This document shows positions 43,985-48,612 of a stretch of DNA of 64,000 nucleotides, piece after piece (the first letter of the stretch is position 1; each line of letters begins with the position of its first letter). This DNA is from an uncultured Clostridium sp. (lineage in GTDB: Bacteria > Bacillota > Clostridia > TANB77 > CAG-508): the NCBI GenBank assembly GCA_947388675.1, contig CANDRW010000005.1, positions 900 to 64,899 of the forward strand. The letters run 5' to 3'. Under the pieces are notes generated by a model. It was not told the DNA's origin. It made no database searches and saw only the letters and a list, made by a program, of their open reading frames with translations. Position numbers and translations under genes: made by a program.

Positions 43985-44513
43985 ATGCAAAATAATATAT
44001 ATGAGTGTATAAATATAGAAAATGTAATTAATAAATTAAAACTGAAAAGAATACATCAGATAGGAACTTATATATATGTAAATTGTCCATTTTGCCAAAG
44101 CAAAAACGAAAGAAATGGATATATGAAAGTAGACACAATTAAAAACTTATATATTTGTAATAATTGTGAATCCACTGGAACTTCAATAGAATTGTATGCA
44201 AGATTAAAATATATATCTAATAAAGAAGCATTTAAAGAATTAATGAAGGAAACACCAATTTTAGATAATAGAACATACATATTTAATAATCCTATAAAAA
44301 GCGAGTTATATAGAGATATGGTATATAGTAAGTTCCTGGAAATGCAAACATTAAATAAAAGACATTATGAAAAACTAAAATCTATAAACTTCACTGATGA
44401 ATACATAAAAATAAATAAATTTAAGAGTATAGAAAGTAATCCAGATAAAAAGAAAGCAATATGCAGAAAACTACAAGAGCAAGGACTAAAACTGGATGGA
44501 ATACCTGGTTTTT
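43985..44513 (+). CDS. Primase-like protein, exon 1 (zinc-finger part), interrupted by a group II intron
   Basis: CHC2-like finger CPFCQSK...ICNNCES. The ORF stops 15 nt after GTGCGAC begins at 44514. Confidence 0.6.
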
Positions 44514-44635
44514 GTGCGACGTGTTCCTAACTTAAAAGGTTAGGCATTAAAGTTAAAAGGTTCCCATTCTAAACAGAAAAAAGAACCAACCCTAAAATTA
44601 AATAATAAATTGAGAACTTAAATAAAAAAGTTTCT

Positions 44636-44872
44636 TTATTCATCATCCAAACCAGAGAAGACATCATGGTCAAAGAAATCTTTAAGTTCAATATCAAGAC
44701 CTAAGCATATACGAAGAATAGTCAACATTTTAGGATTTTGACTACTACCATCAATCAAACTATTTACAGTAGATTGTGGCATACCAGACAACATAGCTAA
44801 GCCATTGATAGTAATCTTATTCTTCTTACATAAATCTAAAACTCTTATTTTTATTGCTTCTTGCAAAGTCAT
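44636..44872 (-). CDS. XRE-family HTH transcriptional regulator (located inside the intron)
   Basis: ITINGLAMLSGMPQSTVNSLIDG is a classic Cro/C1 HTH. It is divergent from 44998. Confidence 0.75.
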   Translation of the reverse strand: MTLQEAIKIRVLDLCKKNKITINGLAMLSGMPQSTVNSLIDGSSQNPKMLTILRICLGLDIELKDFFDHDVFSGLDDE

Positions 44873-44997
44873 ACTATCGCCTCCAATATAACAATAAGTA
44901 TAGCAATAACAACGACCCTACGTTACCGACACGTTGTTGACAAATATAACAAAGCATTATATAATAACGACACAATGGTAATTTAAAGGAGGTAAAT

Positions 44998-45375
44998 ATG
45001 AAAATCAAGACAATAGAACAAATAATGAGCAAATTAGAAGAAGAATTAAGTAGAAAAGGAGAAGAAAACCTAGTAGATGAAATATTTGATGAAAGAACAG
45101 AGGCGCTACATATTGACATAATGGGAAATGTGAAATATAAAAAATCAACCGAAAAAATAAGGCAAATAGACGATGAAATCAAAATGAAATACGGAGATAA
45201 GTACAGGGAAATTATACAGTTAATTGAAAAATATGAAGATGCCGTAGTAAAAGATGGGACAATATGTGAAAAACTTATGTATAAACATGGTGTACTCGAC
45301 GGAATGAAATTAATACTAGACGGAACAAGACAAATAGATATTAAGAAATTTTTAAAGGATAATAAACAATATTAA
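44998..45375 (+). CDS. Hypothetical helical protein (inside the intron, divergent from the XRE gene)
   Basis: ORF with a GGAGG RBS. Confidence 0.45.
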   Translation: MKIKTIEQIMSKLEEELSRKGEENLVDEIFDERTEALHIDIMGNVKYKKSTEKIRQIDDEIKMKYGDKYREIIQLIEKYEDAVVKDGTICEKLMYKHGVLDGMKLILDGTRQIDIKKFLKDNKQY

Positions 45376-46075
45376 TTTAATTTTAGAACAAAACTTTAAG
45401 AGAACTAATAGTTTGATAGGTGGAATGATAGAGTAACGTCTTGAAACGCCTACCTTAAGACTTCGGCTAGCAAATATATATGCAACTATATAAGTGTTAG
45501 AGAGCCCGAAGAAGTCGACTGAAGATTACCGTAATCCTTTATGAATAAGTAAAACAACTGAAAATGAGTGAAACGAAAACTACCCAGAGGTGGGTAACGT
45601 AATCGATAGGTCGGAGGTCTATAAATTTTATATGGTGAGAATACCTTGAAAAAAAGGTCGACGAACTTGCGAGTGTACGGGTCTAGACAGGGCAAATATA
45701 GAAATGTATTTCTCTTTAAATAGAGACTAGTGAGGTAAAGTAAAAATAGAAACTATGAAATACCTTATAATGTTACAGGCATTATCAAGCTAGCAGGCTT
45801 ATAGCAAGCACCTAAGTAAAAATATGAAAAGATAAAACTATTGGAACATGGAAAGTAGCAATACGCAATAATAACTTGTTGCAAAGTGTGGTGGTGTCGA
45901 AGAATAATAAGCACCTTTAGTTGCTATGAGAGTAGTGGCAATGTACCTATGAAGATATAGAAATATATAAGAGGGATAGCCACAAGTCAATTTTCATTGA
46001 ATAATTATTATATAGATAATCATAGTTTCGAGTATGACAAAGAAATATCATACTCCTAAACGGAGGTGGTAGCCT

Positions 46076-47929
46076 ATGAAAAAGCGATTAAGACACAATG
46101 AATATTATAATATGCAACAAATTTTTGATAATCTATATAGTTATGGTAAAAACAATAATAATTTCTATAATCTTATGGAAATCATTAAGCTAGATGACAA
46201 CATAAAACTTGCTTTCCGTAATATCAAAAAAAATCAAGGCTCACAGACAGCAGGAACAGATGGTAAAACCATTAAAGATATAGAACAATTAACAGCAGAA
46301 GAATTTATTAAAATTATACAAAACAAATTAGAATGGTACAAGCCGAAACCAATAAGGAGGGTCGAAATTCCAAAACCAAATGGAAAAACAAGACCACTAG
46401 GAATACCAACAATTATAGACAGAATAGTACAACAATGTATTCTCCAAGTTTTAGAACCAATATGTGAGGCACACTTTCATGAAAGAAGTAATGGCTTTAG
46501 ACCCAACAGATCAACAGAACATGCAATGTCTCAATGTTATAGAATGATACAACAATATAATTTATATTATGTAGTCGACATAGATATAAAGTCATTCTTT
46601 GATAACGTGAACCACTCTAAATTAATAAAACAAATGTGGACACTAGGAATAAGAGACAAACAACTACTTTGCATCATCAAAGAAATGCTAAAAGCCCCAG
46701 TTATACTACAAAATAGGGAAAAAATCTATCCAAGTAAAGGAACACCACAAGGTGGAATACTCTCTCCCTTGTTATCAAACATTGTACTAAATGAACTAGA
46801 CTGGTGGATAACCTCTCAATGGGAAGAAATAAAAACAAAAAGAGAATACAAGGAAAAGATATCCAAAAATGGAAACAAACAACATGGAGCAAGAAACAGA
46901 GAACTAAAAAGGACAAGTAAACTCAAGGAAGTTTATATTGTAAGATATGCAGATGATTTCAAACTCTTCTGTCGAAAAAGACAAGACGCAGAAAAAATAT
47001 TTATAGCAACACAAGAATGGCTAGATAAAAGACTAAAACTACAAATTAGTGAAGAAAAATCTAAAATAATCAACCTCAAAAATGCTTATTCGGAATTTCT
47101 AGGCTTTAAAATGAAAGCGATACCAAGAAGAAATAAGTACGTAGTAAAATCTCACATGAGCGATAAAGCTATAATAAGAGAAACCAACAAGCTAAAAGAA
47201 CAACTTAAAAATATAGCAAAACCACATGATAGCAATAACAGAGGTCTAGCCATAAACTCATATAACTCTATGGTATGGGGAATACACAATTATTACAGAT
47301 ATGCAACAAAAATTGTTGATGATTGTGATAAAATACAATATACAATATCATCAATAATAGAAAGTAAACACGGACTGGGAAACAATATCAAACGAACAGG
47401 AACAATGACACCATACATAAGGGAGAAATATGGAAAAAGCAGAAGATTAAGATATATAGAAGGTAAGCCAATATGTCCTATTGGCTATGTTCAGCACTAT
47501 GTACCTATATACAAAAAATCAAAAGTGTGTAACTATACTAAGGAAGGAAGAGCAGAAATACATAAACAACTAAGATTTAATACCAATATACTATTAGCAA
47601 TGATGAAACAAAAGTTGCCCAATAGAAGTATAGAATACATGGATAATAGAATATCATTATTTGCAGGACAACAAGGAAAATGTGCAGTAACAGGACAAAT
47701 ACTAGACGTTAACAATATACATTGTCATCACAAAATACCAATTAAAAATGGTGGAACTGACAAATATGAAAATCTAATCATAATACATAAGTACATACAC
47801 ATCTTAATACATGCAACAAAACAAGATACTATAAATAAATATAAAAGTATAATAAAAATAGATGACAAAGCAATTATAAAAATCAATAAACTAAGAAAAA
47901 TGGTTGGAAATCCAACCATTTCTTTTTAA
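46076..47929 (+). CDS. Group II intron reverse transcriptase/maturase with a C-terminal HNH endonuclease domain
   Basis: RT motifs RPLGIPTIIDRIVQQ, DIDIKSFFDNVNH, GTPQGGILSPLLSNIVLN and VRYADDFKLF. The maturase X region follows. HNH: CAVTG...HCHHKIPIKNGGTDKYENLIIIHKYIH. Confidence 0.95.
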   Translation: MKKRLRHNEYYNMQQIFDNLYSYGKNNNNFYNLMEIIKLDDNIKLAFRNIKKNQGSQTAGTDGKTIKDIEQLTAEEFIKIIQNKLEWYKPKPIRRVEIPKPNGKTRPLGIPTIIDRIVQQCILQVLEPICEAHFHERSNGFRPNRSTEHAMSQCYRMIQQYNLYYVVDIDIKSFFDNVNHSKLIKQMWTLGIRDKQLLCIIKEMLKAPVILQNREKIYPSKGTPQGGILSPLLSNIVLNELDWWITSQWEEIKTKREYKEKISKNGNKQHGARNRELKRTSKLKEVYIVRYADDFKLFCRKRQDAEKIFIATQEWLDKRLKLQISEEKSKIINLKNAYSEFLGFKMKAIPRRNKYVVKSHMSDKAIIRETNKLKEQLKNIAKPHDSNNRGLAINSYNSMVWGIHNYYRYATKIVDDCDKIQYTISSIIESKHGLGNNIKRTGTMTPYIREKYGKSRRLRYIEGKPICPIGYVQHYVPIYKKSKVCNYTKEGRAEIHKQLRFNTNILLAMMKQKLPNRSIEYMDNRISLFAGQQGKCAVTGQILDVNNIHCHHKIPIKNGGTDKYENLIIIHKYIHILIHATKQDTINKYKSIIKIDDKAIIKINKLRKMVGNPTISF

Positions 47930-47979
47930 TCAAATTTTAAATCTATATAAATAATAAAAATAAATGAAAATTGAGGGAA

Positions 47980-48011
47980 CGCCGTATGACATGAAAATGT
48001 CACGTACGGTG
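47980..48011 (+). ncRNA. Group II intron domain V
   Basis: cgccgtatgacat-gaaa-atgtcacgtacggtg. The layout is CGCCGUAU...AC-bulge...GUACGGUG with a GNRA loop, and a CGC triad replaces AGC. Confidence 0.6.
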
Positions 48012-48055
48012 TGGAGCGGGGGAAAAGATAGAGATAATCTCAAAATCTTACCTAT

Positions 48056-48612
48056 CGCTATTTCAAGATAAAGATTTTAAGTGGACTTATAAATCACATC
48101 AGGGAATCTTTATACCAGTAGTATTAGATAACAAAATACAGGGACTAAGAATATATTTAGACAAAGAATATAGCAAAGACACACAAAATATATGGTTTTC
48201 TAGTAACAACGAATACAATGGAACAAAAGCAAGTAATTGGCCAATGATACTAAAACCAGAAGATATTAATTGGATAGATATGTATAATAATGCAACTACT
48301 ATTATTGTAGCAACAGAAATGATACTAGCACATAAATTATTCAATAGTACGCAGCAATTAGTATTAGGTATTCCAAATAATTTGGATAAAGAGATATTAT
48401 TAGATATTATAGAACGATTGAAAATAAAAGAAGTCTTTTTATATGTTGACAAATATACGATTGCACATACAAGTACACTAATGTATTCAAATGTAATAGA
48501 AACTTTAGAAAAGCATGAAATTAAAGTGAATTTCAGAATAGCTTTAATAGATGAAAGTTTTTTATCGGATTTTCAAAAACAGGAAAACAATATAGAAAAA
48601 AATGTAGCATAA
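48056..48612 (+). CDS. Primase-like protein, exon 2
   Basis: The frame is open from the intron 3' end through SLFQDKDFKWTYKSHQGIFIPVLDNKIQGLRIYLDKEY...IIVATEMILAHKLF into the 48244 ORF. Confidence 0.55.

Follow-up and report, generated by a model that had tools for sequence, protein, structure and literature searches.

A group II intron from a mouse-gut Clostridia genome that probably carries a two-gene regulatory module as cargo in a domain I hairpin

Introduction

Can a group II intron hold a pair of genes inside domain I of its ribozyme and still be alive? This question is raised by a gene at positions 43985-48612 of a 64,000-nt stretch of DNA (hereafter, the window) from a mouse-gut Clostridia metagenome-assembled genome (MAG; source contig, locus L007). 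The gene is split by a group II intron that encodes its own intron-encoded protein (IEP), and inside this intron lie an XRE-family helix-turn-helix (HTH) gene and, divergent from it, a gene for a 125-aa protein that probably belongs to the DUF6809 family. A first-pass annotation of the locus had left the choice between a tolerated cargo and an insertion that had killed splicing. The analysis reported here favours the former, that is, the cassette appears to be a tolerated, co-mobile and modular cargo. We consider it likely that the element is a cargo-carrying mobile intron, which sits at the conserved GIPGF-F codon of a gene for a zinc-ribbon protein of ~360 aa and holds an 837-nt two-gene module.

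Results

The intron and its boundaries

When Rfam was run at gathering thresholds over the whole window, exactly one group II intron was found. The domain I core is located at 45400..45625 on the plus strand (RF02004, group-II-D1D4-5; 162.6 bits, model positions 1-201 of 201) and includes a hairpin capped by GUAA, and domains V and VI (D5 and D6) are located at 47977..48061 on the same strand (RF00029; 59.8 bits with a gathering cut-off of 40, model positions 1-77 of 77). Rfam places D5 itself at 47979-48012 (+), where a domain V hairpin had already been recognized at 47980-48011. In the D6 helix, GCGGGGG...CCUAUCGC, A48054 is left bulged as the branch point, 7 nt from the 3' end of the intron. 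The open reading frame (ORF) of the IEP occupies 46076..47929 (+) and encodes 617 aa with a reverse transcriptase (RT) bearing the YADD motif, a maturase region and a C-terminal HNH endonuclease; Pfam detected RVT_1 (E=7.5e-41) and HNH, and the score against TIGR04416 was 346 bits with a cut-off of 300. Apart from the EBS2-IBS2 pairing, treated below, all the defining features that can be tested were found, and by these features the element is a genuine group II intron of the IIB type.

The intron extends over 44514..48061 (+; 3,548 nt), from 5' GUGCGAC to ...CGCUAU 3'. That is, its termini are GUGCG at 44514 and ...UAU ending at 48061, and the exon boundaries restore the frame of the host gene. 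Exon 1 (43985..44513, +; 176 codons plus 1 nt) ends with ...GGAAUACCUGGUUUUU, in which GUUUUU is intron-binding site 1 (IBS1). The ORF that begins with exon 1 (43985-44530, 181 aa) runs past GTGCGAC at 44514 and meets its stop codon 15 nt inside the intron; the 5' end proposed in the first-pass annotation is borne out by the ORF list and by the sequence. Exon 2 (48062..48612, +) completes a split codon, U plus UU, which encodes Phe, and its frame is open to 48612.

As for the 3' end, an intron ending at 48055 with a frame-keeping join of 44513 to 48056 had been suggested. Both this join and that of 44513 to 48062 are indeed in frame, but the former introduces two residues that are absent from every homolog, and only the 44513/48062 junction fits the more than 130 uninterrupted homologs. 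Across the junction these homologs all read GIPGF-[F/M/Y]-QD and leave no space for two extra residues; therefore, the intron is 44514-48061. The end of the Rfam model likewise places the 3' site at 48061/48062, and a 3' splice site at 48055 was ruled out by the homolog alignment across the junction. The ligated exons read ...GGAATACCTGGTTTTT followed by TTCAAGATAAAGATTTT, and the spliced product is a protein of 359 aa, whose uninterrupted homologs have 355-361 aa and show up to 88% identity over 100% of the length.

The host protein contains a DnaG-type CHC2 zinc ribbon (PF01807, E=1.6e-7 in Pfam). Against the dnaG model it scored 27 bits with a cut-off of 284, and because the zinc ribbon is the only domain detected, "primase-like" is a loose label. 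Thus the earlier description of a split primase-like gene is right as to the split, and its primase identity is only weakly justified.

The insert in domain I

To describe the 5' part of the intron, we used 51 fetched loci encoding relatives of the IEP (44-67% IEP identity, the window's own contig excepted), 16 of which were scanned with Rfam. The RT/maturase ORF starts 1,562 nt past the 5' splice site, as had been noted before, compared with ~705-780 nt in the relatives, and the total length of the intron is 3.55 kb compared with ~2.7 kb. From the start of the Rfam domain I match to the IEP, the distance is 676 nt in the window and 640-720 nt in the 16 scanned relatives; from the 5' GTGCGA to a conserved GGAATGA, it is 906 nt in the window and 70-109 nt in ~30 related introns. 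Positions 44514-44554 align base for base with the 5' ends of the relatives, in which GTGCGAC is followed by a 6-nt strand, a hairpin with the loop UGAAAAG and then GCAYUAA, and the alignment resumes at ~45385. When 44555-45391 was removed, the window intron aligned end to end with 16-26 relatives, from domains I to III up to the start of the IEP. The alignment with the relatives thus supports a divergent gene pair nested inside domain I, as first proposed. The part of the intron that precedes the insert had been put at ~120 nt; it is only ~41 nt (44514-44554), and the next ~80 nt belong to the insert.

The first 41 nt were then compared among 27 aligned introns (the window and 26 relatives) by counting the pairs of three helices; as controls, the 3' partners were slid by 1-3 columns, and 500 shuffles were made. 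The helix that closes domain I, I(i), is formed by CGUGUU at 44520..44525 (+) and AACAUG at 45845..45850 (+). It was paired in 100% of cells, with compensatory changes in three of its six pairs, and the closure of domain I proposed earlier between the regions of 44518 and 45844 is therefore essentially right. The first hairpin (IA by position; 44526..44544, +) is CCUAAC-UUAAAAG-GUUAGG, in which 44526-31 pair with 44539-44; 98% of its cells were paired and five of six pairs showed compensatory changes. The second hairpin (IB by position) has a base helix made of UUAAAGUU at 44547..44554 (+) and AACUUUAA at 45392..45399 (+). All six of its counted pairs (44547-52 with 45394-99) covary, for example CG/UA and AU/UA/GC, and in the window the helix is extended to 8 bp by 44553-54 with 45392-93, every pair being formed. 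Taken together, the three helices were paired in 95.9% of cells with compensatory changes in 14 of 18 pairs, the slid controls gave 24-43% pairing, and none of the 500 shuffles reached any observed measure.

The insert itself, 44555..45391, is 837 nt long and makes up the distal part of hairpin IB. The same part is unconserved in the 26 relatives, which have 9-44 nt there (median 23). The junction from IB to the cassette reads TTAAAGTTAAAAGGTTCCC and that from the cassette to IB reads TTTTAGAACAAAACTTTAAGAGAACT.

These observations bear on the idea that GTGCG at 44514 is fortuitous, that the intron starts at ~45.4 kb, and that the XRE and 125-aa genes are nothing but ordinary genes flanked by ORFs which do not belong together. 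The Rfam domain I model does start at 45400; however, it begins 50-90 nt after the true 5' end in every relative. Moreover, 44514-44554 aligns with the 5' ends of the relatives and takes part in three covarying helices, I(i), IA and IB, two sibling copies (L061 and L055, described below) lose identity to the window within ~16 nt of 44514, and the exons fuse into a conserved protein. We regard this explanation as extremely improbable. A 5' end near 45.4 kb, which the first-pass annotation had named as the finding that would overturn its proposal, is excluded by the 5'-end alignment, the covarying helices and the identity break.

Exon-binding site 1 (EBS1) was placed at 45748..45753 (+), where AGAAAC pairs with IBS1 GUUUUU at six of six positions (one G-U). 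This column consists of the 6 nt that directly precede UAUGAAA, and 25 introns match the ends of their own exons there: the complementarity of an intron to its own exon averaged 5.44/6, compared with 2.59/6 to the exons of other introns. The GAAAAC at ~45569 that had been taken as a possible EBS1 is displaced by this site and was ruled out.

Several further features of the 5' region were recorded. An ACGUUC/GAACGU pairing was considered as a helix spanning the insert and rejected, since the wider alignment gives a distal GGAACGU (I(i)) and a separate IB base helix. In the subgroup nearest the window, the IB loop AAAAGAACGY mimics the 3' strand of I(i) and covaries with its 5' strand. The mimic is seen in the window (44522-44526 with 45386-45390) and in L001, L002, L008, L011, L016, L017, L020, L030 and L036, for example as UGCGUUC/GAACGCA in L001, ACGUUC/GAACGU in L002 and UGUUC/GAACA in the window; GAACGY occurs in this one subgroup only, and it may be an alternative pairing or a relic of duplication. 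The spacer from the 5' strand of IB to the XRE stop codon (44553-44632) aligns weakly with the intron's own 5' region (TTAAAAGGTTCCCATTCTAAAC and TTAAAAGGTTAGGCATTAAAG; score 42, compared with 25 +/- 4 and a maximum of 38 in shuffles), which could be a scar of the insertion event. Among the relatives, a Ruminococcus contig (L010) has two related group II introns in tandem, 1321-4041 and 4252-6981, ~210 nt apart. In a Butyricicoccus MAG (L019, OZ007036.1), a 314-aa IS30-type transposase-like ORF (2405-3349, minus strand) interrupts domain I and the Rfam domain I match is shortened to 167 nt; this is a contrasting case, a disruptive insertion.

Sibling copies and selection

Two other contigs carry the intron in a different allele of the host gene. 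From 44498 onwards, cassette included and up to the point where the contig ends (1,058 nt), L061 shows 99.5% identity to the window; 5' of the equivalent of 44498 the DNA sequences do not align. Exon 1 of L061 keeps the phase of that of the window and ends with ...RGIPGF, yet shows 44% protein identity to exon 1 of the window and is closer (53%) to a diverged intron-less subfamily (P0158); the L061-type target site reads GGAATTCCTGGATTTT up to the splice point. L055 has the L061-type diverged exon and junction, with 96.5% identity and with assembly frameshifts. In both, the identity to the window collapses to unalignable sequence within ~16 nt of 44514. Since identity breaks at the splice site, the intron and the cassette move as one unit. 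Homing would leave just such a sharp break where splicing occurs and at one shared codon of alleles that have strongly diverged, although the break does not prove the RNA route.

Two more siblings, L052 and L053, are 94% identical to the window over 44618-48084. In the pairwise comparison of the window with L052, the ratio of nonsynonymous to synonymous substitution rates (dN/dS) was 0.07 for the XRE gene and 0.18 for the gene of the 125-aa protein; for the IEPs, which are 98% identical, it was 0.08. Judged by these ratios, the XRE, DUF6809 and IEP genes are all under purifying selection.

We then weighed whether the intron is dead, that is, whether the cassette landed by illegitimate recombination and abolished folding, leaving the zinc-ribbon gene a split pseudogene. 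An insertion of 837 nt in domain I has no precedent, related introns can be killed by insertions, as in L019 with its interrupted domain I and shortened Rfam match, and splicing is deduced here from the sequence. On the other hand, the insert lies in the sole length-variable part of the 5' region and keeps the closing helix; the IEP, D5/D6, I(i) and EBS1 are intact; the IEP has a dN/dS of 0.08 between cargo-bearing siblings; the same intron with its cargo stands at the same codon of an allele with 44% identity; and exons 1 and 2 are still open and in frame. A dead intron therefore seems improbable to us. The same observations, together with the purifying selection on the cassette genes, led us to favour tolerated cargo and to disfavour the notion that splicing was killed.

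Several points weigh against the reading of a live, cargo-carrying mobile intron. Splicing and retrohoming of the intron with its cargo are deduced from sequence, and the evidence from siblings in diverged alleles comes from two poor metagenomic contigs: L061 has 1.2 kb at low coverage, and L055 contains many frameshifts. Intron and cargo could also have been transferred by recombination of DNA. For EBS2 and IBS2, no consistent column of complementarity was found. The names IA and IB were assigned by position, from the general anatomy of group II introns, because both are followed downstream by the hairpin with the GUAA cap that belongs to the Rfam model. Passages of an engineering study state that cargo placed in domain IVb lowers the efficiency of retrohoming and insertion (PMC8524655), and because of this the 837-nt insert may be costly. 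Finally, the function of the cassette is entirely deduced, and the driving of IEP expression cannot be its general role, as will be seen from the copies in domain IV.

The cassette genes and their control region

The first-pass annotation had called an XRE gene and a 125-aa ORF, and both are present in the ORF list at the positions given for them. The XRE-family gene (44636..44872, minus strand; 78 aa) is antisense to the intron, and its HTH was recognized by Pfam (HTH_26, E=5e-7, 30.3 bits with a cut-off of 22; HTH_3, 23.0 bits with a cut-off of 23). The gene of the 125-aa protein (44998..45375, +), a probable DUF6809 member, encodes a product that is predicted to be all-helical. A single-sequence search found six similar proteins among 5.8 billion, on whose contigs the evidence from siblings rests, a profile search 39 proteins of the family, and an exhaustive hidden Markov model search 85 among 1.84 billion cluster representatives. 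The window protein itself did not match PF20648 at E<=0.01, and 23 of the 34 aligned homologs, to which it is 36-75% identical, did. AlphaFold2 gave a helical bundle with a predicted local distance difference test score (pLDDT) of 82 from the 34-sequence alignment, and of 59 from six sequences.

Searches for the function of this protein gave little. Against the PDB, Foldseek found nothing with E<3.8 and a sequence-profile search nothing with E<0.18; longer DUF6809 proteins contained no informative fusions; PADLOC and NCBIfam returned nothing useful for the cassette beyond a weak PADLOC match to a control protein; IMG/VR contained no relative of the protein; and DUF6809 appeared in no paper of the literature searched. 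A scan of IMG/VR for the conserved promoter of the cassette returned four chance matches in unrelated phages with C4 RNA.

The two genes are separated by a divergent control region of 125 nt (44873..44997). When five intron-borne copies are aligned, no other part of the cassette is conserved as well as this one. It contains AACGAC at 44911 and 44966, TACCGA at 44924, and the ribosome-binding site AAAGGAGG. A sigma-70-type promoter, TTGACA-17-TATAAT (44937..44965, +), faces the 125-aa gene and the rest of the intron; it matches the consensus at 12 of 12 positions and is the sole such promoter in the 2.4 kb scanned for promoters and terminators (43800-46200). The -35 box TTGACA was conserved in all five aligned cassettes and the -10 box was TATAAT in four and TACAAT in L028. 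The second AACGAC lies directly 3' of the -10 box, TACCGA abuts the -35 box, and an inverted TCGGTA follows the second AACGAC in three of the four other cassettes compared. It is plausible that these AACGAC and TACCGA motifs are candidate operators to which a dimer of the XRE protein would bind.

In the scanned region no intrinsic terminator was predicted on the sense strand, and transcripts from the promoter would run through the DUF6809 gene, what remains of domain I and the IEP gene as far as exon 2. Such transcripts lack the 5' splice site and are therefore usable only as mRNA. One could imagine instead a split intron, in which the host transcript ends in the cassette, a second RNA starts at the internal promoter, and the two are trans-spliced by means of the IB base helix and I(i). 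The strong internal sense promoter and the two helices that bridge the halves (8 bp and 6 bp) would suit such an arrangement, and organellar group II introns split within domain I are known, as in Chlamydomonas psaA intron 1. However, the lack of a predicted sense-strand terminator argues against it, the cargo and the intron travel together at 99.5% identity, where retrohoming, if it is the route, needs one contiguous RNA, and the lineages with the cassette in domain IV are not split in such a way. We judge a split intron to be very improbable.

The cassette elsewhere and its origin

Homologous XRE/DUF6809 cassettes were found in domain IV of other introns that belong to this Rfam type, where they lie between the stop codon of the IEP and D5. 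In L067-70 (20 contigs), the 5' splice site is at 3057, the IEP at 3773-5662, the XRE gene at 5640-5876 (minus strand), the DUF6809 gene at 6001-6366 and D5/D6 at 6501-6586; L028/L054 have a domain IV cassette with two XRE genes, and L056 has a further one. In the domain IV copies, the 3' end of the antisense XRE gene overlaps that of the IEP gene by 15-23 nt in a convergent arrangement (5640-5662 in L067; 2637-2651 in L056). In these lineages the promoter follows the IEP and is directed into D5/D6 and the exon downstream of them. Thus, driving the expression of the IEP is not the general role of the module.

Outside introns, one to three HTH genes are always divergent from DUF6809 at the head of an operon. 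The neighbours there are large serine recombinases (L062, L071, L075), RepA_N and TnpV (L076), or ArdC, MobC and a relaxase (L078); a metagenome scan returned a single locus, which was again of the non-intron kind. Intron-borne XRE proteins are 73-77% identical to that of the window, compared with 37-40% for the non-intron XREs detected, all of which are from one element family (L071-L074). A rough neighbour-joining tree of DUF6809 places the window group in a cluster with P0003 and P0017, which are domain IV copies.

The IEPs of the group with the cassette in IB and of the domain IV group are only 54-55% identical, and each is closer to introns that lack a cassette (window compared with L001/L008, 61-63%; L028/L067 compared with L023/L031, 59-62%). 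When the window is compared with L052, identity is 71-90% in the cassette block and 93-100% in the remainder of the intron, with a break at ~45400; the pairwise synonymous rate (dS) was 0.46-0.73 for the cassette genes and 0.10 for the IEP. Only two of 45 species-representative relatives carry the cassette. These comparisons point to a module captured from the switch regions of mobile elements and then exchanged among introns, into domain IV in some and into IB here; how many captures and transfers took place, and in which direction, is judged from identity matrices and the neighbour-joining tree. As far as such comparisons indicate, the module comes from the HTH/DUF6809 switch found at operon heads in integrative, plasmid-like and conjugative elements of Clostridia.

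What, then, might the cassette do? It is possible, and we put it forward only tentatively, that the cassette is adaptive for the intron: the XRE protein and its operators would gate the internal promoter and thereby the supply of IEP, the mobility of the intron or the downstream host operon, with the DUF6809 protein as a co-regulator. In every intron-borne copy the promoter is co-oriented with the intron and the XRE gene is antisense; different intron lineages have conserved both the promoter and the repeat motifs; purifying selection acts on the genes; the intron-borne XREs form a tight group by the identities given above; and in the window the IEP lies downstream of the promoter, no terminator being predicted between the two. 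Against this stand the position of the domain IV promoter downstream of the IEP, the rarity of the cassette among the 45 relatives, and the fact that neither the PDB fold and profile searches nor the longer homologs of DUF6809 point to RNA or reverse transcriptase.

Alternatively, the cassette may be a selfish or host-beneficial cargo unrelated to the intron, such as a toxin-antitoxin addiction, immunity or anti-defence module that hitch-hikes from one mobile element to another. Three observations would agree with a hitch-hiker: the native place of the module is at operon heads of integrative, plasmid-like and conjugative elements, the evolution of DUF6809 is faster than that of XRE or the IEP, and the block has been exchanged between introns. 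Yet PADLOC gave no significant match beyond the weak one to a control protein, the genes are divergent and do not form an operon, which is unusual for toxin-antitoxin pairs, and no toxin domain was found in Pfam, NCBIfam or PADLOC, nor any structural match in the PDB fold search. We think such a cargo rather unlikely.

The surroundings of the host gene

The neighbours of the intron-bearing gene include genes for a Gp3-like recombination directionality factor (36062-37231), a PAPS-reductase-like protein, PcfJ (54167-55624) and ImpB/MucB (59691-60917). Because of these genes, the surroundings indicate an integrated mobile element, not a typical phage. The L067 locus, with its cassette in domain IV, has a similar neighbourhood (SSB, DUF3846, PcfJ and a DnaG zinc ribbon), and the two introns seem to live in the same kind of element. 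When 43985-48612 was compared by megablast with phages and plasmids, no sibling was found, only D5/D6-sized matches to Bacillus and Enterococcus introns and one ltrA fragment.

The same stretch also holds a tRNA gene near the left end of the window (2797-2870, +; 63.9 bits), possibly marking the integration site of a mobile element; a gene for a 1,490-aa protein with 11 SpaA/prealbumin-fold repeats, of the surface adhesin type (12314-16786, +); and a cyclic di-GMP-I riboswitch aptamer (25068-25154, +; 79.8 bits, full model), which ends 11 nt 5' of a 227-aa ORF (25166-25849).

Discussion

The proposed course of events is as follows. Transcription of the host operon would run straight through the intron, in keeping with the lack of a predicted sense-strand terminator. 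The 8-bp base helix of IB, which is present in the sequence, would close over the cargo and let its 837 nt loop out, much as the IEP ORF loops out from domain IV, with I(i), IA, EBS1 and D5/D6 intact. Splicing would join 44513 to 48062 and restore the 359-aa protein, as the frame and the homologs suggest, and the excised RNA including the cargo would retrohome into intron-less alleles, as the sibling copy suggests. In the DNA form, the cargo would be an autonomous divergent unit, in which the antisense gene encodes the XRE repressor and the sigma-70 promoter with its flanking repeats drives DUF6809; transcription from this promoter would also continue through the remaining part of domain I and the IEP gene to exon 2.

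Compared with canonical bacterial mobile group II introns (e.g. Ll.LtrB; RF02004/RF00029, IIB), the window intron shares the 5' GUGCG, I(i), the EBS1-IBS1 pairing, D5, D6 with its bulged A and an IEP that has YADD and HNH; its homing site, too, lies within a mobile-element gene. Unlike them, it adds two genes unrelated to mobility, and it does so in a domain I hairpin and not in domain IV. We know of no use of IB as a cargo site in targetrons. Engineered targetrons also carry foreign genes that are looped from a peripheral stem and moved by retrohoming (PMC8524655; PMC3898094); the placing of cargo in domain IVb is an engineering practice (PMC8524655). The window cargo differs from these in being natural, conserved and under selection, and in its site; what corresponds in nature to the targetron design is found in the sister lineages, whose domain IV has the cassette behind the IEP.

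Group II introns that encode LAGLIDADG proteins likewise have a non-RT ORF in the ribozyme and a modular assembly (PMC4424553; PMC13190283). There, the foreign ORF replaces the RT and supplies mobility, whereas the window intron keeps its RT and its additional genes are a transcription regulator and a DUF protein, neither of which serves mobility. Twintrons and introns interrupted by insertion sequences (IS) have in common with the window intron a large insertion inside an intron, and L019 is an apparently IS-interrupted example from the same family. A twintron was rejected, as the window has one domain I match and one D5/D6 match, and the insert consists of two protein genes and a promoter with no second ribozyme; unlike the insertion in IS-interrupted introns, it has no transposase, respects the fold of the ribozyme and interrupts no core element.

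With regard to the genes themselves, the module resembles the Cro/CI-type (XRE) divergent switches of prophages and integrative and conjugative elements in having a small HTH repressor divergent from a strong promoter with operator-like repeats. It differs in being detached from an operon and embedded in a retroelement, and its intron-borne XREs form a group of their own with 73-77% identity. IStrons of Clostridioides difficile are a group I intron fused to an IS200/605 element. They are thus, like the window intron, a chimera in Clostridia of a self-splicing ribozyme with genes of another mobile element. In IStrons, however, the ribozyme is of group I and the partner supplies transposition, while here the ribozyme is of group II with its own RT and the partner is regulatory.

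A 2015 review of how group II introns evolved lists as variants introns that are endonuclease-less, have a degenerate IEP or a LAGLIDADG ORF, are ORF-less, or belong to group III, as well as split introns, altered splice sites, alternative splicing and twintrons; cargo unrelated to mobility is not among these forms (PMC4424553). A 2025 survey of phage group II introns describes introns containing homing endonuclease genes, with no regulatory cargo at the passages searched (PMC12350094). In the literature searched, no natural group II intron with cargo unrelated to mobility was found. What appears to be new here is thus a natural, selected and modular regulatory cargo in a group II intron, at a site in domain I.

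We may ask further whether the cassette is tied to the intron, that is, whether there is a lineage of cargo-carrying retroelements with a selected XRE/DUF6809 module that passes from one intron lineage to another and occupies two ribozyme sites, IB and domain IV, and which either gates IEP supply and mobility or gives the host operon a new promoter. We hold this to be no better than a tentative possibility. If it is true, IB is a second natural cargo site, which takes ~0.8 kb without loss of splicing or retrohoming.

Apart from this, the locus gives a first genomic handle on DUF6809, which is always the first gene divergent from small HTH repressors in mobile elements of Clostridia. If the cargo-bearing intron does splice and retrohome, the domain I hairpin tolerates 0.84 kb, which would be useful for the design of targetrons, where cargo in domain IVb lowers efficiency according to the passages of PMC8524655 cited above. 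There would also be a repressor-controlled promoter within a ribozyme and upstream of its RT gene, so that the regulation of intron mobility becomes testable. Under the same condition, bacterial retroelements of this type can spread regulatory genes between mobile elements.

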